Assembly: GCA_964016885.1 (NCBI GenBank)
Contig: OZ024742.1
Coordinates: 327,546,001 to 327,610,000, forward strand
DNA length: 64,000 nucleotides
Direction: 5' to 3'
DNA from: Eledone cirrhosa
Taxonomy: Eukaryota
Shown piece after piece: positions 7,711 to 63,998 of this stretch; within the stretch, counting starts at the first letter, position 1, and each line of letters begins with the position of its first letter. The notes beneath the pieces are model-generated. The model saw only the letters and a list, made by a program, of their open reading frames with translations. It did no database searches and had not been told where the DNA came from. A program made the position numbers and the translations under genes.

Positions 7711-8658
7711 ATATCCATATCTTCCATCTTCATTGCTTCCCACTAACCTCACCGAAGCAAAATCCTGTCAAATGTTTGTATACTTCCTAATTAGTGTTTT
7801 TGTTATTATCTTCTTTGTTAAGTTAACAGATAACCGCATTTCGGCAACATTTCAGCAGTATATTCAGATAACAGTAAAACTGTGACATAATGAAAGAGAA
7901 AACAACTTGTAACAAAATGGCTGAATATCAGTGAAGTTCTTCTGTAGATGAAGGTACAAATAAAATGATTCTAGCTTTCGATCACTATTAGTAATTTCTG
8001 CAATACTTGCGGCTTAGTATTAAGTGAATATTGAAGTAACTCTACTAAGGAAAGCATCGCAAGAAGAATTTATTAATATAAAAATAAATAAATATTTACG
8101 TATTTCAGGATATTCCCGTGGAGGTGAAACAAATTTTATGGGTTGAACCGGTATTTTAGTTACAAAGAAGACTTTAATTTTACATTATCTAAATATTATT
8201 GCTAAGTACATATATTTGAATTAATAAACATTTACACGTATCTAAAGAATATTTATTTTATATGTGGCAAAGAGATATATGTGTGTATACATATATACTT
8301 GAATTTATATGCTTTTGTGTTAAATGCCCATATAATGATGGTTGTGAGTTCGATTCTCGGACAGGGTTACGCGTTGTGTTCTTGAGCAAGGCACTTTATT
8401 TCACGTTACTCCAGTTCACTCAGCTGTAGAAATGAGTTACAGCATCACTGGTGCCAAGCCTTATCAGCTTTTCCCTTTCCCTTGGACAACATCGGTGGCG
8501 TGGAGAGAGTAGGCTGATATGTATGGGCGACTGCTGATCTTTCATAAACAACATTGCTCGGTCTTGTGCCTCGAAGGGGGACTTTCTAGGTGCAAATCTC
8601 ATAGTCATTCGTGATCGAAGAGGGTCGTTAACTTATATATATATATACATATATATAC

Positions 8659-8862
8659 AGGAAAATGTTTAACCCCGACGGCAGAGCTCAAGCAGTTTCG
8701 ACGGCTATTTCTGGACTATTTCAGTCCATAAATAGCCGTCGAAACAGCTTGAGCTCTGCCGTCGGGGTTAAACATTTTCCTATTACCCACTCTACTACCC
8801 TAAGTATTGAGTACTCTAGTATGTTATGGTCCATCTGGTTCCTTACCACACCTCCTTCGTTA
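8659..8862 (+). mobile_element. Fold-back PLE-type fragment, family P1, copy 1 (hairpin 8659-8781 plus tail)
   Basis: Inverted repeat containing the 3' half of an HHR (GAAAC...GCCGTC-GGGG). The tail ctattacccactctactacc...gtattgagtac...ggttccttaccac is shared with 46703-46864 and 63792-63998. Flanked by (TA)n. Confidence 0.8.
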
Positions 8863-8884
8863 TATATATATATATATATATATA

Positions 8885-9259
8885 TACAATATTAAATAAA
8901 TGGAAACTATATTTATAAAACCATATTTATTTCATTATATATATTTCGGGGATATCATATTAACAATATGCTATGCCTTCCTCAGACAAAATACAATATA
9001 AACAGTTTTATAGATAAATAGATTCGACATACCGTTATAACACCGACTTCCATTTGAAGAGGTTTAGGCTGGCAGTCTAAACCTCTTCAAATGGAAGTCG
9101 GTGTTATAACGGTATGTCGAATCTATTTATCTATAAAACTGTTTATATTGTATTTTGTCTGAGGAAGGCATAGCATATTGTTAATATGATATCCCCGAAA
9201 TATATATAATGAAATAAATATGGTTTTATAAATATAGTTTCCATTTATTTAATATTGTA
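8885..9259. repeat. Palindrome with 183-bp arms, each carrying a hammerhead motif
   Basis: The arms mirror around about 9072. Downstream sequence aatatggttttataaatatagtttccatttatttaa recurs at about 27770 and 44330. Confidence 0.95.
9151..9216 (+). ncRNA. Type I minimal hammerhead ribozyme (mirror copy on - strand at about 8928-8993)
   Basis: Stem I tattttgt/atgaaata; CTGAGGA 9159-9165; imperfect stem II; GAAA 9197-9200; self-complementary ATATATAT stem III; AUA cleavage triplet. Confidence 0.65.
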
Positions 9260-9346
9260 AATATACTCCAAATATTTGTCGAGTGCTTTTATATCAGTTA
9301 TAAATATTTACTAGTTGTAACCCAACAATTTTAAATATAACTTTCC

Positions 9347-9372
<26 letters not shown>

Positions 9373-9384
<12 letters not shown>

Positions 9385-9586
9385 ATAGCTTTCACCGTAT
9401 TTTTAACTAAAGGAATTTTAGCTTGATAACGGGGTTTAGAACCCTCAGATAAATGGAAAAAGATGAGTATTGACGTACATGTACGTCAATACTCATCTTT
9501 TTCCATTTATCTGAGGGTTCTAAACCCCGTTATCAAGCTAAAATTCCTTTAGTTAAAAATACGGTGAAAGCTATATATTTTCTAAT
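9373..9586. repeat. Perfect palindrome, 107-bp arms, no loop
   Basis: Centre gacgtaca|tgtacgtc at 9479/9480; the left end abuts (TA)n. Confidence 0.95.
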
Positions 9587-10187
9587 TTCAAAATCGCTCA
9601 CTGTTTCTAAACATACTTACTTGATATATATATATATATATTTATATTTTTTCCTCAGCTGCGATTGTCTGTTTCTTTCTTACTGCTTCCCCTCTGTATC
9701 TCTCACCTTCTTTTTACCCCCTCTGCCAGTAACACTCTCTCTCAGCTGACCTCTTCCTCACACTTCCACTCACTCACTCTCTGCTTCTCCCCTCTCTCAC
9801 TTCCTCCCGTTTGACCTGTGTGAAATCCTTTTCTCGCTCACATCTCACCCATGTCGGATGGTCTGTATCTCTCGTCCATGATTTTACCAAGCTTAAGCTT
9901 ATAGATATCATGTACTTGTCTATTCCTATCTTTCCGTTGCAATATCATCTTTGTTTGTCTACATGTCTCGCTCGCTTCACGCTAATTTACTTGTCCCAAT
10001 AACTTTATTTAGTTATTGCTCGCACCAACCAGAGGTATATGATTTTTAAAGCGATGAAATACCAATGAAGGTTGGAAGATCACTGATGAAGGACTAATTT
10101 CATTCATATGTAATCCATGTGCAACCACGCAGCACTCCATTTTTCTTATAAATATATATATATATATATATATAGCGAATTCATTTC

Positions 10188-19355: not shown

Positions 19356-20071
19356 AAATTTCGCTCTACATGGCTGAATATAATAAATGTTAATAATAAC
19401 ATTCGAATATTAATAATAACATTCGATTCGTTTGCATATTAATAATAACATTCGATTCGTTTGCAATTATGCAAACAAGCCTCAATTTATTTTATAGCCA
19501 TGTCAGTAGAATGAACACTTCATTCTTGCTCTTATGTTGGCATGCGAACAGAACTGGGTATAAAATTGAGGTTTGTTTGCATAATTGCAAACGAATCGAA
19601 TGTTATTATTAATATTCGAAAAACTCAGATTACATTTATTGTATTCAACCATGTAGAGCGAAATTTTCTTTTTTATTTGAATTTGGCAAAGCCGGCCATT
19701 TATCGCTCGTATACAGGAAACTGACTGGCCAGTCTGCTATGAAAAGCTGGCTGATTAATAGATCTGCTAATATGCGGATCTCACTGATCAGCCAGTCTGC
19801 TAATATGCAAATCAGGCTGATCAGTTACTGTGTATTTTTGAAAATAGTATATATTTTCACTAGCTCTGACAGTTTGGCAGGTGAACAGTGAGCTGTACTG
19901 ATGAAGGGTGATACCTAGAAACATTAGTGTCTGCAGTTCTGTTCGCATGCCAATATAAGAGCAAGAATGAAGTGTTCATTCTACTGACATGGCTATAAAA
20001 TTGAGACATGTTTGCATAATTGCAAACGAATCGAATGTTATTATTAATATTCGAAAAGCTCAGATTACATT

Positions 20072-26967: not shown

Positions 26968-27511
26968 TTTCGTTTCTGAATTTGTTGAGCAAGATTCTTT
27001 ATCTGAAATCGTGTGTTGAAACCGATATTGTTATACTTTGAGAGGGTCATGTTGCCAATAAGAAACACACGCACCAGTTGCTTTCACTTCAATTTATTAT
27101 AATAAATTTATAAATTTCTGGTTGGTTGGTTAGTTCCACAACCAGATAGTTGTTTATATATTGTCATAGTTCTTTCGTCACACACTCTGTGACCTCTTCA
27201 GTGACTGGGGATTCCTCAGTGCCTCTCCTTTGTTCTGTCCTACGCCATTTTGTTTCTGTGTGTGTCTGTAGGACAGAACAAAGGAGAGGCACAGAAACAA
27301 AGAAAGGAATCCCCAGTCACTGAAGAGGTCACAGAGTGTGTGACGAAAGAACTATGACAATATATAAACAACTATCTGGTTGTGGAACCAACCAACCAAC
27401 CAGAAATTTATAAATTTATAAATTTATTATAAATTTATTATAATAAATTGAAGTGAAAGCAACTGGTGCGTGTGTTTCTTATTGGCAACATGACCCTCCC
27501 AAAGTATAACA

Positions 27512-27515
<4 letters not shown>
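26968..27515. mobile_element. Fold-back PLE-type fragment, family P3 (arms of about 220-245 bp, HHR in each arm)
   Basis: 27025-27243 is inverted at 27268-27515; flanked by (TA)n; a related inverted copy lies at 44575-44935. Confidence 0.85.
27316..27358 (+). ncRNA. Minimal type I hammerhead (mirror on - strand at 27163-27205)
   Basis: gtca-CTGAAGA-g-gtcac(agagtgt)gtgac-GAAA-gaac-TA-tgac. Confidence 0.7.
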
Positions 27516-43587: not shown

Positions 43588-43815
43588 TACATATATGTAT
43601 ACAGACGTACAGTAGTATGTATATATATATATACATACATGCAGACATATATATATATCTACGTATGAATTTACCGAACATTTATTATAATGCTCGGTTT
43701 GTTTGTAAACAAATCGAGCATTATAATAAATGTTCGGTAAATCCATACGTAGATATATATGTGTGCAAGTATGTATATATATACATACTACTGTACGTCT
43801 GTATACATATATGTA
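43588..43815. repeat. Imperfect palindrome, about 110-bp arms
   Basis: Centre tttgttt-gt-aaacaaa at about 43705. Confidence 0.9.
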
Positions 43816-43931
43816 TGTACGTATACATACTTATATATATATAGTAATAATAATAAATTTGAAGACTAAAATCCAAAGAGGCCTCGATAAGGATAAATAT
43901 ATATCAAATATATAAGAACCGTAGACCAAAT

Positions 43932-44026
43932 ATTTATTAAAATAACAGATTAAAGTTTAAGCAAAGAATCGGTGCTTTCACCCAAGCGATTCTTTGCTTA
44001 AACTTTAATCTGTTATTTTAATAAAT
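43932..44026. repeat. Perfect hairpin, 40-bp arms, 15-nt loop, next to (TA)n
   Basis: atttattaaaataacagattaaagtttaagcaaagaatcg and its reverse complement. Confidence 0.95.
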
Positions 44027-44365
44027 GTATATATATATATATACAGACGACTTCCAGCACTGGGGATTTGGGGGTTTAATCCCTTCCAATAATATGGAAA
44101 CTTAAAGTTTTGTTAGTTAAAATAAATTGTCAGTAATGATGTAAAATAATTTGTTTCTATATTTTGATTTTTACTACACTGATTTTCAATTGATTCTAAA
44201 TATGATCATGTTTTTAATTTCTTTCTTAGTTTCGTATTGATGATAAACATTCATGAGCTAATAATAATAGTAATACACATGTATCTTATATAAACTGAAT
44301 TCCCTCTAATCTGGTATATATATATATATAAATATGGTTTTATAAATATAGTTTCCATTTATTTA

Positions 44366-44574: not shown

Positions 44575-44935
44575 TCCATACTTTGGAAGGGTCATGCTGC
44601 CAATAAAAACACACGCACCTATTGGTTTTCACTTCAATTCATAATCAATTTCCGGTTGGCTGGTTCAACAGCAGAATTGTTGTTTATATATTGCCAAAGC
44701 TCTTTCGTCACGCATTCTGTGCCCTCCTCAGTGACTGATTTCTTATTTTGTGTTTCTCTTTTGTTCTTTCCTACGCTATCTCGAACCACCAACCAGAAAT
44801 TTATAATAAATTGAAGTGAAAACCAACAGGTGCGTGTGTTGTTATTGGCAACATGACCCTCCCAATGTATAACTATTTGTTTCAACACACGTTTTCAGAT
44901 AAGAAATCTTGCAAAACAAGTTAAAAAATGGAGTA
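44575..44935. mobile_element. Older fold-back copy of family P3 with a degenerate HHR on the - strand
   Basis: Inverted arms homologous to 27.0-27.5 kb; minus strand gtcaCTGAGGAgggcac...gtgacGAAAgagctt. Confidence 0.7.
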
Positions 44936-46702: not shown

Positions 46703-46705
<3 letters not shown>

Positions 46706-46860
46706 CAAAGGAATTGTGGTAAGGAACCAGATGGACCATAATGCACCAGAGTACTCAATACTTAGGGTAGTAGAGTGGGAAATAGGAAAAAGTATGACCC
46801 CGACGGCAGAGCTCAAGCCGTTTCGAAACGGCTTGAGCTCTGCCGTCGGGGGTCATAATT

Positions 46861-46864
<4 letters not shown>
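46703..46864 (-). mobile_element. Family P1, copy 2 (loopless hairpin 46786-46864)
   Basis: Centre gccgtttc|gaaacggc; tail shared with the other P1 copies; flanked by (TA)n. Confidence 0.85.
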
Positions 46865-46904
<40 letters not shown>

Positions 46905-51438: not shown

Positions 51439-51632
51439 GTTATTCCGGGTTGAATCGGAGGTAACCACAGTAAGTAAGGTACTCAATACATAGCAGAGTA
51501 TAAAAGTTTTAATATAGATGAGATTCTACAGGACTAGAACTGTTTCATTCATTAGAAATCATCAGGAATTCCTGATGATTTCTAATGAATGAAACAGTTC
51601 TAGTCCTGTAGAATCTCATCTATATTAAAACT
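51437..51632 (-). mobile_element. Family P2 fold-back fragment with back-to-back hammerheads
   Basis: Perfect palindrome 51505-51632 centred on ggaa|ttcc; flanked by (TA)n. Confidence 0.85.
51568..51614 (+). ncRNA. Type I hammerhead (mirror on - strand at 51523-51569)
   Basis: attc-CTGATGA-tttctaatgaat-GAAA-cag(ttctagtc)ctg-TA-gaat; stem II is weak. Confidence 0.65.
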
Positions 51633-51755
51633 ATATATATATATATATATATATATGCATATATATATGTCGAAGTATACAATGGACTTTTAAGTAAGAA
51701 AACCTATCACAGAATGTTAACTAATTGTATGTTTGTAATGATGTACGTGCACCTG

Positions 51756-56758: not shown

Positions 56759-59204
56759 AATATCTTTAAGTCGTTTGGAAGCCTCGACAATGCAAATGGG
56801 TAAATCTCCGGGTAACAAGATCCGGTGGTGGAGAGAGAGATGTAAGTGGGTGTATGTTGAGATGCGTGGTGTGTATAAGACGTGTAGAAGAATGAAGGAA
56901 AGAGTATAAAGGATAAAATAAAAATAAGAACACAAGAGAGAGTTACCTTGGGAGAGATTTAATTGTCCCTATATATTTCGGATGCACATCCATCAACTGG
57001 GGGTTTTTTCCGGGGTGCGGGAAAGGTTGTCTGTCGGAAAGGTGCGAAATGTGTCCTCCGCTGTTTGTTGTTTTGAATATCTGAGGAATTCAGCAGAGCG
57101 CGCGTGCGCGTGAAATGGGTTCGGCGGGCAGAGGTCAGCGGCCGAATGTGGGAGTGGGGTGGTGCTAGCTGTCAGTCCATTCTCTGCCTGTTTGTTAAAT
57201 GTTACTGTGTGTGTGTGTGCGTGTGTTGTTGTCTCGCTTGAGTGTGTGTGTGTGTGTGTGTTGTTGCCTTGTTCCTCTGTATTGGCAGTGTAGTATGTTC
57301 GGATGGTGGAATGCTACTGTTTGTGTGTGCGTGTGCGTGTGTAGTTGTCTCGTTTGTGTGTGTGTGTGCGTGTGTTGCTGCATCGTTTCTTAACTTAAAC
57401 CAGCCACTTCATTTCGCTTCTCTCGGATCGATTGTTTATTTGCGGTGCAAGGCGTTTGATAAAAAGCGCTTCCTTGATACGTAACGTGCCGACGTTTCTT
57501 TCAGTCGCTAGAATTGTGACAATGGGCCTTCCGTCTTTGTTTCCGCATTTATCTATGTGTTTTCGGAAAGACGAGGCCCTGGTTTTAGTGTGTTCCTTGA
57601 TCCGGATGTGCAAAGGTCGGATTGTGCTACCTATATAGTATTGGTTGCACCTGTCACATTCTATCTTATACACGACGTGTGTGCGTAGGCAACAGTTCGC
57701 ATTGCGTATCGGGCAGTCTCTGAGGGAGCACGCGTCAGTAGATTTCCCGGGTTTCCTGGAGAGGCATCTCCGCAGGGAAGGGCCCGAGTGGGCCAGGTGG
57801 ATGTCGAGACCCTCCCTCCGTATAGCCTTGCGGATAGCGTTGGTGGTATTCTCGCCCAGGTGTGGCATCTTAAGGAAGCACTTGCCTTGGGTGCCTCTCT
57901 GTATCTTGCGTCTGGTGTCTCCTACTCTGTCTGTGAGCGAGGTAGGGTACCCGTTCGTCTCCAGCACCTCGATGAATCTCTTGGTATGAGTGACACCACC
58001 CGCGGGATCGCTGCATCTGTTTTTGATTCGCGCGATCTCGTTCGTGATGTATCCTCTGTTAGCACTGTTCGGGAGGGCGGACTTGTAGTGAATGAACAGG
58101 TCCCTGTAGGCTGCCTTTCGGTAGAAGTTGCAGTGGATCCTTCCCTGTTCCGTGATGTTGATTCGGAAGTCGAGGAGGGCAAGTGACCGTCTTCGTTGGG
58201 GTGTTCAACACTGAAGTCAATGTTTCTCGTCGTGTTGTTGACCGTCTCATAGATTCTGTTCGCCGTGTCTTGGGAAGATGTGAGGATGAGGATATCGTCC
58301 ACGTACCTTGAGAAAAAAGTGACGGCGTTGGGGTGGCAGGCGTTGAGTGCCTTGCGCTCGAGGTTGTCCATGTAAGAGATCGATAGCACACCCGACAGGC
58401 TTGATCCCATGGGCAATCCCGAGGTTTGTTGGTATGTTTGGTCAAGGAATCCGAAGTAGGTGTTGTCGACGACGATGGATAGGAGTTGGTGGATGTCAGT
58501 GGTGGTGAACCCGAAGCAGTGTAGATCGGTGGATTGGACGCGTTCCATCAGTATATTGACGGCCGGGAGTGCCGGGACAGAGGTGTAGAGAGCGGACTAC
58601 ATCAAGGCTGAAGGCATATCTGTTATTCCCTTCTGGTGTCGGGATCCATTTGAATGCAGGCGCTTCAACACCTCCTCGGAACTGTTAACGTGTCCCGGCA
58701 AGGTGTCTAAGATGGGGTTTGAGTATTCTGGCTAGGAGCCATGAAATTTTGTAGAGTGGTCCCTCCACGCTCGATACAATGGGCCTGATCTTCAGGTCGT
58801 GTCCCTGTTTATGTGTTTTCACGAGGTGGTAGAAGGCGGGTAGTCTGCTGTTCCTCCTGAGGTGGTTGTATCTCAGCTTCTTCGGGAGCTTCCGCCGGTC
58901 GCAGATGTTGGTCCAGGCGGCGTTGATGTGCTCTTCTATCTGCGCGGGAGTGATTCCCGTGACCTTGGAGTAGAGGTTGTCATCGTCAAGGTGTTGGAGG
59001 GCCAGGGTGTTGTAGGCCTCTCTGCTGATGACGCAGGATTCTTTTCCCTTGTCGGAGGGGAGATAGATGAGGTTCTTCGATTTTAGGTTGGAGAGAGTGG
59101 TGAGTTGAGATTGGTGAGGTTATGTGTTGTGCGTGTGTGTGTGTGTTTGTGAAGTATATCCGAGATGGAGTGTTTTAGCCTGATGAGTTTAGTGTCGAGT
59201 TCGT
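56756..59204 (-). mobile_element. 5'-truncated inverted copy of the Penelope-like element (frameshifted RT, intact GIY-YIG frame 57395-57967)
   Basis: Near-identical reverse complement of about 60211-62546; GLPMGSSLS and RYVDD motifs; its 3' end abuts (TA)n. Confidence 0.95.
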
Positions 59205-60486
59205 CGTTATTTTAATTTTATCCTTTATACTCTTTCCCTTCATTCTTCTACACGTCTTATACACACCACGCATCTCAACGTACACCCACTTACATCTCTC
59301 TCTCCACCACCCGGATCTTGTTACCCGGAGATTTACCCATTTGCATTGTCGAGGCTTCCAAACGACTTAAAGATATTTACCTATTATTCCACAATGCTTC
59401 AAGCAAACTTCAATACTCTCTTTATCCTTACACCTGAGCCAGGAATTGTTTGCATCCGTAAGGGAACTGTTTAGACTGTCGGAGAAATGGGCCAATGCTG
59501 TCTGTCAAATTATTTTCCTGAAACGCTGCCTAAAAAACGATGTCATCCCCAAAACCATCAGGAACATCCGCTTACCAGTAAGCCTACGTACACCAGCTTT
59601 CCAAAACACCACTAACCCGCATACATCGCACGTGTATTAAACAGATCCTGAGACATCTCAACCGCCAATTACACGTCCATAAGCGAACACTCTCAGAGCG
59701 GACACATCGACTGTCAATAGCACCCGGGGACTTGCTCCTGAAAATCACTAAAGCATTCGACCAGTGCTACCACTCCAGAGTCCAATACGATAAAAAACGG
59801 CTCAAGCGAAAATATGAGTGGATATTGTCGAAACGTCACAACGAGAACATCGACACTAACGAACAGACAGACCAGAACCACGTGGAAAACAACTTAAACA
59901 ACCGCCACCGCCGCATCCACCAACACCGAGCCACACCTCAACGATGCGACGCACCTGGTCACCGACCTAACCGGCACTTCTCACGAGCGACGAGCTGACA
60001 CTCCTACACCTCGGACCCAAGTTCATCGTCTCACAACGTCTCGACGACAGACTCAAACTCAACATCGAGGCCAACTTTTGTCGAGCCGCTTACCAACTTA
60101 AATGGGTGACAGACATCAACAGCGCCACAGAAAATAACAGCGCCCACGCAACCCATCCCAAGTTCCTCCCTTACCACCCCGACAACCCAATCCAACTCAC
60201 ACCCCCAATCACGAACTCGACACGAAACTCATCAGGCTAAAACACTCCATCTCGGATATACTTCACAAACACACACACACACACGCACAACACATAACCT
60301 CACCAAATCTCAACTCACCACTCTCTCCAACCTAAAATCGAAGAACCTCATCTATCTCCCCTCCGACAAGGGAGAAGAATTCTGCGTCATCAGCAGAGGG
60401 AAAAGAATTCTGCGTCATCAGCAGCGAAGAAGCTGAGATACAACCTCCTCACGAGGAACAGCGGACTACCCGCCTTCTACCACCTC

Positions 60487-61911
60487 GTGAAAACACATAA
60501 ACAGGGACCCGACCTGAAGATCAGGCCCATTGTATCGAGCGTGGAGGGACCGCTCTACAAAATTTCATGGCTCCTAGCCAGAATACTCAAACCCATCTTA
60601 GACACCTTGCCGGGACACGTTAACAGCTCCGAGGAGGTGTTGAAGCGCCTGCATCAAATGGATCCCGACACCAGAAGGAATAACAGATATGCCTTCAGCC
60701 TTGATGTAGTCGCTCTCTACACCTCGGTCCCGGCACTCCCGGCCGTCAATATACTGATGGAACGCGTCCAATCCACCGACCTACACTGCTTCGGGCTCAC
60801 CACCACTGACATCCACCAACTCCTATCCATCGTCGTCGACAACACCTACTTCGGATTCCTTGACCAAACATACCAACAAACCTCGGGATTGCCCATAGGA
60901 TCAAGCCTGTCGGGTGTGCTATCGATCTCTTACATGGACAACCTCGAGCGCAAGGCACTCAACGCCTGCTACCCCAACGCCGTCGCCTTGTTCTCAAGGT
61001 ACGTGGACGATATCCTCATCCTCACATCTTCCCAAGACACGGCGAACAGAATCTATGAGACGTTCAACAACACAGACGAGAACATTGACTTCAGTGTTGA
61101 ACACCCCAACGAAGACGGGTCACTTGCCCTCCTCGACTTCCGAATCAACATCACGGAACAGGGAAGGATATACTGCAACTTCTACCGAAAGGCAGCCTAC
61201 AGGGACCTGTTCGTTCACTACAAGTCCGCTCTCCCGAACTGTGCCAAAAGAGGATACATCACGAACGAGATCGCGCGAATCAAAAACAGATGCAGCGATC
61301 CCGCGAGTGGTGTCACTCATACCAAGCGATTCATCGAGGTGCTGGAGACGAACGGGTACCCTACCTCGCTCACAGACAGAGTAGGAGACACCAGACGCAA
61401 GAGACAGAGAGGCACCCAAGGCAAGTGCTTCCTTAAAATGCCACACCTGGGCGAGAATACAACCAACGCTATCCGCAAGGCTATACGGAGGGAGGGCCTC
61501 GACATCCACCTGGCCCACTCAGGCCCCTCCCTGCGGAGATGCGTCTCCAGGAAACCCGGGAAATCTACTGACGCGTGCTCCCTCAGAGACTGCCCGATAC
61601 GCAATGCGAACTGTTGCCTATGCACATACGTCGTGTATAAGATAGAATGTGACAGGTGCAACCAATACTATATAGGTAGCACAATCCGACCTTTGCACAT
61701 CCGGATCAAGGAACACACTAAAACCAGGGCCTCGTCTTTCCGGAAACACATCGACAAATGCGGAAACAAAGACGGAAGGCCCATTGTCACAATTCTAGCG
61801 ACTGAAAGAAACGTCGGCACGTTACGTATCAAGGAAGCGCTTTTTATCAAACGCCTTGCACCGCAAATAAACAATCGATCCGAGAGAAGCGAAATGAAGT
61901 GGCTGGTTTAA
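60487..61911 (+). CDS. PLE reverse transcriptase + GIY-YIG endonuclease (open C-terminal 474 aa of a disrupted ORF)
   Basis: KTHK..IRPIVS, FSLDVVALYTSVP, GLPIGSSLS, RYVDD, LLDFRI..FYRK; VVYKIECDRCNQYYIGST.R.L..RIKEH, KEALFIK...PQIN. Confidence 0.93.
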   Translation: MKTHKQGPDLKIRPIVSSVEGPLYKISWLLARILKPILDTLPGHVNSSEEVLKRLHQMDPDTRRNNRYAFSLDVVALYTSVPALPAVNILMERVQSTDLHCFGLTTTDIHQLLSIVVDNTYFGFLDQTYQQTSGLPIGSSLSGVLSISYMDNLERKALNACYPNAVALFSRYVDDILILTSSQDTANRIYETFNNTDENIDFSVEHPNEDGSLALLDFRINITEQGRIYCNFYRKAAYRDLFVHYKSALPNCAKRGYITNEIARIKNRCSDPASGVTHTKRFIEVLETNGYPTSLTDRVGDTRRKRQRGTQGKCFLKMPHLGENTTNAIRKAIRREGLDIHLAHSGPSLRRCVSRKPGKSTDACSLRDCPIRNANCCLCTYVVYKIECDRCNQYYIGSTIRPLHIRIKEHTKTRASSFRKHIDKCGNKDGRPIVTILATERNVGTLRIKEALFIKRLAPQINNRSERSEMKWLV

Positions 61912-62299
61912 GTTAAGAAACGATGCAGCAACACACGCACACGCACACACAAACGAGACAACTACACACGCACACGCACACACACACAGTAGCATTCCAC
62001 CATCCGAACATACTACACTGCCAATACAGAGGAACAAGGCAACAACACACACACACACACTCAAGCGAGACAACAACACACGCACACACACACACAGTAA
62101 CATTTAACAAACAGGCAGAGAATGGACTGACAGCTAGCACCACCCCACTCCCACATTCGGCCGCTGACCTCTGCCCGACCGAACCCATTTCACGCGCACG
62201 CGCGCTCTGCTGAATTCCTCAGATATTCAAAACAACAAACAGCAGAGGACACATTTCGCACCTTTCCGACAGACAACCTTTCCCCCACCCCGGAAAAAA

Positions 62300-62335
62300 C
62301 CCCAGTTGATGGATGTGAATCCGAAATATATAGGG
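62300..62335 (+). ncRNA. Hammerhead-like motif with non-canonical CAGTTGA core (also - strand at 56967-57002)
   Basis: ccc-CAGTTGA-t-ggat(gtga)atcc-GAAA-tata-TA-ggg in the PLE 3' region. Confidence 0.55.
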
Positions 62336-63791: not shown

Positions 63792-63793
<2 letters not shown>

Positions 63794-63998
63794 CGAAGGA
63801 AATGTGGTAAGGAACCAGGTGGACCATAACGCACCAACGTACTCAATACTTGAGGTAGTAGAGTGGGTAATAGGAACCAGTAAGACCCCGACAGCTGAGC
63901 TCAAGCCGTTTCGACGGCTAATTCTAGACACTAATTCAGTTCAGAATTAGCCGTCGAAACGGCTTGAGCTCAGCTGTCGGGGTCTTACTGGTTCCTAT
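63792..63998 (-). mobile_element. Family P1, copy 3 (hairpin 63870-63998, 56-bp arms)
   Basis: Perfect arms, 17-nt loop; tail shared with the other P1 copies. Confidence 0.85.

Follow-up and report, generated by a model that had tools for sequence, protein, structure and literature searches.

Inverted arms are a described feature of Penelope elements (PLEs), and the closest relatives of the repeat analysed here are those of the Hydra clade, in which an inverted copy that is 5'-truncated and tailed at one end only has been reported (Craig et al. 2021, PMC8557442). In the available text of that source, Hydra elements have a C-terminal GIY-YIG endonuclease, DKT in place of DKG, a CxCX5C linker, CxxC/CxH motifs around E and N, no CCHH motif, (TA)n targets and a hammerhead ribozyme in the terminal repeat (pLTR), and the formation of inverted and tandem PLE insertions is named as an open question. 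A published guess for palindromes at head-to-head PLE junctions is self-priming (Arkhipova et al. 2013, PMC3846280). For PAc, a Poseidon element of the green anole, both strands of an AT-rich target are reported to be cut and extended, two internal start sites of the reverse transcriptase (RT) bound the tail, uncleaved hammerhead RNA is copied, and ribozyme mutants still insert; the available text of that study offers no explanation of inverted arms or of the 5' boundary (Frangieh et al. 2024, PMC11167929). In LINE-1 twin priming the second target end primes internally, giving a head-to-head junction with small indels (Ostertag and Kazazian 2001, cited in PMC4859970). PLE hammerheads of Schistosoma mansoni show a U3-A8 core, an extra base before G10.1, a long helix II, and motif pairs on opposite strands (Cervera and de la Pena 2014, PMC4209133), and an internal promoter has been reported for Penelope (PMC2377424).

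We analysed a 64,000-nucleotide stretch of the Eledone cirrhosa genome (contig OZ024742.1, positions 327,546,001 to 327,610,000; hereafter the window), together with genome-wide copies of a palindromic family, P1, that it contains. P1 shares the Hydra traits listed above, but its tail is 78 nt long (30-40 bp in the described elements), its ribozyme core is U3-A8 rather than canonical, RWR is found where RWK is expected, and most copies are stubs of 60-200 bp that end in one 15-nt zone. It resembles PAc in its two start sites bounding the tail, its AT-rich target, the copying of uncleaved hammerhead RNA and, probably, the extension of both strands, with the difference that the P1 start sites lie in the 5' UTR and match the target over 2-3 nt of TAT. 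Unlike in LINE-1, the two cDNAs would copy the same stretch and so yield a palindrome, with the second site at a fixed position. The P1 hammerhead has the four S. mansoni features, yet in contrast to the minimal forms described there its helix III is a full stem of 5-6 bp and its helix II spans about 55 nt. Palindromes occur at head-to-head junctions as in the self-priming model, but the P1 data need two primers and a sense template, and no antisense template. The type of element, its layout, the core variant and the use of two start sites were already known. On balance, we regard it as probable that P1 copies arose as insertions, truncated on the 5' side, of a Hydra-like Penelope element, with twin-primed arms and an RNA 5' end inside stem II of the hammerhead. 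Twin priming itself appears very likely; that the boundary reflects a transcription start is, given twin priming, a fairly likely reading of the sequence features described below.

Results

The three copies in the window

Element positions are numbered from the hammerhead cleavage base, C17 = 0. P1 copies lie at 8659-8861 (+), 46704-46868 (-) and 63792-63998 (-), each flanked by (TA)n tracts, and each has GAAAC-stem III-GTC-GGGG, an inverted arm and a 78-nt tail on a single side, which bears out the copies and layout given by a first-pass annotation of the window. That annotation had also placed the turn inside stem II in copies 1 and 3 and right at GAAA in copy 2; these positions hold (TTCGAA is the turn in copy 2), but the turn in copies 1 and 3 falls in the 3' strand before the loop, not across the hairpin.

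In copy 1, the left (TA)n target (8636..8658) is followed by the tail-less arm (8659..8717, reverse strand), which runs from +18/+20 to -40, and by a junction filler, ATTTC (8718..8722), that is a templated piece of the neighbouring arm and gives a CTATTTC/AGTCC-type junction. The tailed arm (8723..8861, forward strand; -40 to +98) starts at 8723 with the A of a TTAGTC motif and contains GAAAC at 8741-8745, C17 at 8763, the second priming site (+20) at 8783 and the tail at 8784-8861, with the right (TA)n tract beginning at 8862. Copy 2 consists of a tailed arm (46704..46824, reverse strand) from +98 to about -22/-24, with C17 at 46802 and the TTCGAA palindrome as its joint, and a tail-less arm (46825..46868, forward strand) from about -22 to +20 that ends on (TA)n. 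In copy 3, the tailed arm (63792..63925, reverse strand; +98 to -35, C17 at 63890) and a filler (63926..63933) precede a tail-less arm (63934..63998, forward strand) that runs from -44/-40 (A at 63938) to +20 and so reaches further 5' than its tailed partner; (TA)n then continues beyond the window.

The parent is a Hydra-like Penelope element

P1 is the pLTR of a Hydra-like Penelope element that is autonomous and whose U3-A8 hammerhead is intact. Copies that extend upstream enter an ORF with RT plus a C-terminal GIY-YIG domain, contiguous with the pLTR as in single-ORF EN+ PLEs. In copies holding an upstream pLTR the tail runs on into the 5' UTR and the ATG, which makes the end of the tail an internal site. 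The ORF has 796 homologues, mostly of about 700 aa and unnamed, and a Pfam search of it returned no significant hit. Exactly one tail was present in 18/20 long two-armed copies, in keeping with the PLE layout of pLTR, inverted 5'-truncated copy and one-end tail. Hydra marks include HSDKTGNLY (DKT instead of DKG) in L215, L217, L221, L224 and L225, the linker and endonuclease motifs CNCPDRSTC (CxCX5C), RPCNLCSEE (CxxC) and LNKK..ACKH (CxH) with no CCHH, and insertion into (TA)n, ATATA following 164/180 tail ends; RWR stands where the Hydra RWK was expected. Membership of Naiad is ruled out by the C-terminal position of the endonuclease, and a non-LTR retrozyme, with tandem or dispersed monomers holding a whole hammerhead, does not match short copies made of half a ribozyme arranged head to head.

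The first-pass annotation had predicted an un-inverted parent with a full hammerhead and a CCCC-TGANGA core. Such a parent exists, but a genome pattern search for that core directly before GACGGCTA gave 0 matches, because the real core is CCCC-TTGANAA-G, the known U3-A8 variant as opposed to the canonical Hydra core, in which position 7 is free to vary and the helices are kept. Across 99 copies the core variants were TTGAAAA (54), TTGACAA (19), TTGATAA (4), TTGAGAA (4), CTGAGAA (3) and others (15), and the intact core had 1,611 exact matches genome-wide. The layout is that of a type I hammerhead, with stems I, II and III round the core, G10.1-C11.1 and a GUC site. In 18 read-through copies 87.6% of cells were paired and 4/33 pairs had changed on both sides, which is a weak test as the rows are related; in the outer helix of stem II, 3 pairs were altered on both sides, and the stem is conserved with compensatory changes. 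An Rfam scan of the window gave 188 rows; the 150 of them listed were hairpin or microsatellite artefacts, and none was a hammerhead. Most arms derive from cDNAs that cross the predicted cleavage site, 8/84 ending at -17..+3.

Several Hydra-like PLE families occur in this genome, as ORF pieces of two further ones are found at L175:1-1095 and L180:300-1703. A SINE-like repeat with over 20 matches in the window lies inside the 3' UTR of the element (L018:950-1130), and a 593-bp tandem repeat, 99% identical and part inverted, adjoins a long parent copy of P1 (L172:1068-4237, reverse strand).

Abundance and subfamilies

A 20-mer spanning the 3' strand of stem II and GAAAC had 56,664 exact matches in the 3.0 Gb genome. 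In 1.364 Mb of genome blocks, picked regardless of the element and including the window, we found 53 P1 clusters, 31 of them two-armed, so the occurrence of P1 in the window is not due to chance; if the blocks are representative, there are ~100,000 P1 insertions genome-wide. The words that the annotation had regarded as specific to copies 1, 2 and 3 are indeed mirrored in each copy's own second arm, but they are not private, recurring 10, 12 and 18 times among 82 two-armed copies: they are subfamily words, and are those of the autonomous parents. Both arms had the same word within 1 mismatch in 75/82 copies, against 17% of cross pairs, with one clear chimera (L055). The comparison of arm-versus-arm with copy-versus-copy divergence went against private mutation as well, since the arms of a copy differed at 2.6 of 43 bases and the nearest other copy at 1.4, which indicates that the arms have a common source. 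An older P1 subfamily at L282:1773-2205 has compensatory stem II changes (GATC/GATC) and retains the TTAGT motif.

Arms end at a boundary probably set by the template

Inner arm ends fall at -34..-48, with a peak at -40, the A of TTAGTC. As the annotation had anticipated, breakpoints were far from uniform: of 67 arms extending into stem II, 61 terminate within the 3' strand. Single-armed copies stop in the same zone as two-armed ones. The A-type had 19,029 genome matches, and the count dropped to 1,611 once stem II was crossed; at 31 nt further upstream it was 1,789, with no additional fall. The per-base hazard was maximal at -40 (23/68 arms), and, judged by eye, a non-template base occupied -41 in 47 of the 100 arms listed. 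When arms did read through, so did their partners (16/18, compared with 6/67 overall; p 2e-15), which indicates that the stop belongs to the template. By eye, head-to-head pairs made up 22 of the 100 core matches listed and 30 of the 100 upstream matches listed. The motif at the stop is T(T/C)AGT(C/T), with TTAGT or TCAGT kept across subfamilies, and we take this TTAGTC/TCAGT motif at -40 to fit the invertebrate initiator consensus.

The 5' end is not a single base, since 21/131 arms go on to -41..-48 with template bases that match their subfamily; there may be several starts, or a cut near the loop. Untemplated G has been described as a mark of capped 5' ends in L1, and for P1 the corresponding signal is mixed. 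Under strict rules a free G at -41 was found in 17/22 cases and in 8/64 elsewhere, under loose rules in only 10/20 against 5/24 (p 0.06). Judged by eye, junctions at which both arms pass -40 had A 76, G 11, C 8 and T 5 of 100, with neither an excess of G nor of C in this cap test. All 4 copies examined that span the ORF and the upstream pLTR (L215, L220, L221, L223) pass -40, and would thus come from longer or tandem RNAs.

An alternative account of the boundary, which retains twin priming but is rather unlikely in our estimation, is cleavage of the RNA close to the stem II apex, or else stalling of the RT, in some of the RNAs, at a stem II that is folded or bound by protein. The spread of ends over the inner helix and loop edge would suit it, as would the compensatory conservation of stem II and the mixed cap signal. 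Independent stalling, however, predicts that about 16/18 partners of read-through arms would stop, and 2 did; in addition, stem II is predicted to fold at only -10 to -16 kcal/mol, and ends peak on the A within an initiator-like hexamer that the subfamilies conserve. Shared read-through would be expected of a template that ends near -40 in some cases and not in others.

Two other candidates were rejected: a template switch at -40 in long arms was unsupported, with no consistent upstream rise in arm-arm divergence in 16 copies, and a 3' splice site at TTTAG is ruled out, as ends peak at the A rather than after AG. Several copies (L290, L348, L336 and G000:C1:23089407) have long poly(T)/poly(A) directly at the -40 junction, which may stem from slippage of the RT on the TTT that precedes the motif, or from addition of a tail to cDNA ends.

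Two probable priming sites and arms that are not nested

The outer end of the inverted arm lay at +15..+21 in 29/31 copies. Tail-less arms made up 8/22 of the single arms, and the +20 site is thus also used alone; solo tail-less inserts of -40..+20 were found between (TA)n tracts, and 13/30 read-through arms end at +20 on (TA)n. Both outer ends (+20 and +98, one per arm) finish in TAT, a short match to the target.

A single cDNA copying itself would leave the inverted arm nested in the tailed arm, and the data violate this. A split-alignment test of 74 short copies, not selected for junction type and with one copy of doubtful orientation, gave a longer inverted arm in 22, a longer tailed arm in 8 and symmetric arms in 44; this count excludes 22 copies retrieved by a stem-II-spanning query as biased (3 left, 8 right, 11 symmetric). 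Among the 18 of 20 long copies with one tail, the tail-less arm was longer in 8, the tailed arm in 8, and 2 were similar. In L076, L179, L238 and L242 a tail-less arm of 1.2-1.6 kb stands opposite a short tailed arm, and a whole inverted ribozyme is joined to a 42-nt tail stub in L285. In a picked set of 60 loci (L311-L370, 60 of the 100 places listed, with read-through and most symmetric ones omitted), the partner of five tail-less arms was a bare tail stub. CTAWTTC/AGTCC, seen by eye in 14 of the 100 matches listed, is the commonest junction; it spans about 10 subfamily words, and in 14/18 cases its -40 end belongs to the tail-less arm. Identical junctions recur across different subfamilies and in both orientations. 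Later deletion within palindromes may mimic some non-nested arms.

These results bear on the idea that one tailed cDNA folds on small local repeats rather than on stem II and uses itself as template as far as +20, with non-nested arms arising through later deletion or flipping. The 44/74 symmetric junctions, many on short palindromes, and the short templated additions of compound junctions such as that of copy 1 agree with such a fold-back, and self-priming has been proposed before (PMC3846280). We nevertheless hold it to be improbable, in view of the 1.2-1.6 kb tail-less arms opposite short tailed ones, the solo tail-less inserts between (TA)n tracts and the placement of the -40 end in the commonest junction.

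The first-pass annotation had the 3' end of the cDNA fold back on the copy of the stem II hairpin and prime the second arm from there; this mechanism is contradicted and very improbable. Its premise that palindromes arise anew at each insertion is upheld, as junctions vary and recur across subfamilies, and breakpoints do cluster in stem II; but it needs the loop and 5' strand, which 0/96 short two-armed copies hold in sense, it needs nested arms, and single-armed copies end in the same zone. The accompanying suggestion of a non-catalytic role for the ribozyme structure is unlikely too, because read-through is common to both arms (16/18) and because, in further hammerhead families of the window, the turn lies upstream of a core that is intact.

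Equally remote is a self-propagating, non-autonomous MITE- or SINE-like element with inherited inverted arms and central deletions, a reading to which very high copy number, fixed outer ends and subfamily-matched arms might point but which is at odds with a continuous series from 60-bp stubs to ORF-bearing copies, identical junctions in different subfamilies and both orientations, asymmetric ends with the tail on one side, and subfamily words shared with autonomous parents, such that the arms do not behave as fixed terminal inverted repeats on a constant body.

Discussion

Twin priming on one sense RNA would account for P1 as follows. Transcription would start at about -40 in the upstream pLTR, giving an RNA that carries the GAAAC half there and no stem II. 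The element's protein, probably as a dimer, would nick both (TA)n strands, after which one target end would prime at +98 and the other at +20 on the same RNA. Both cDNAs would then copy to the RNA 5' end (138 and 60 nt), running off inside hammerhead stem II, or stop earlier. The like-stranded cDNAs could be joined head to head through palindromic microhomology of 1-6 nt (TCGA, GAGCTC, CTAG, AATT) or, as in copies 1 and 3, by a few bases of templated synthesis, which resembles synthesis-dependent end joining; a local snap-back of a few bases may take place at this joining step. Long copies would come from priming on the downstream copy of the pLTR. Nicking and extension of two strands are proposed by analogy with in vitro work on another PLE, and we infer the initiator start, downstream-pLTR priming and mode of joining.

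More tentatively, and with considerable doubt, a broader scheme can be considered. If transcripts start in the middle of the hammerhead, the 5' copy could not fold or cut, and RT would prime twice near the 5' end; the ~100,000 stubs might then be fossil 'strong-stop' cDNAs, and long copies might arise by priming on, or transfer to, the 3' pLTR in an LTR-like step.

In the literature found, neither twin priming as the origin of inverted PLE arms nor a start site within the hammerhead had been put forward; subscription journals, Repbase reports and supplements, which lay outside this scope, may describe the P1 family. Discrimination of mechanisms at genome scale is absent from the papers found. 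P1 offers tens of thousands of short, readable junctions that separate the models, and these favour two primers on one sense RNA, in agreement with the in vitro two-strand, two-start result. They also point to a transcription start that would split the ribozyme. On this reading, a very large group of hairpins that look like MITEs or miRNAs is explained as debris of retrotransposition, and the P1 palindromes would bear witness to the way in which such elements insert, not to a function of ribozyme folding.

Further hammerhead and palindromic families occur in the window. At 51440-51640, a different hammerhead family has head-to-head arms and a tail on one side, with its turn (GGAATTCC) just upstream of an intact CTGATGA core. 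Beside copy 1, at 8879-9265, 193-bp near-perfect inverted arms each hold a CTGAGGA...GAAA hammerhead-like motif, and the turn lies about 85 nt upstream of the core. A third inverted-arm family (27025-27515 and 44578-44909) shows CTGAAGA/CTGAGGA hammerhead-like cores and compound junctions. Single CTGATGA hammerhead-like motifs of other families lie at 19898 (+) and 47056 (-), and palindromic inserts of other families, with arms of 114, 55 and 42 bp, at 9355-9604, 43645-43766 and 43926-44032. A frameshifted Penelope-type RT/GIY-YIG element with two long inverted arms (RPIVS, YVDD, YYIGST) occupies about 57000-62300.
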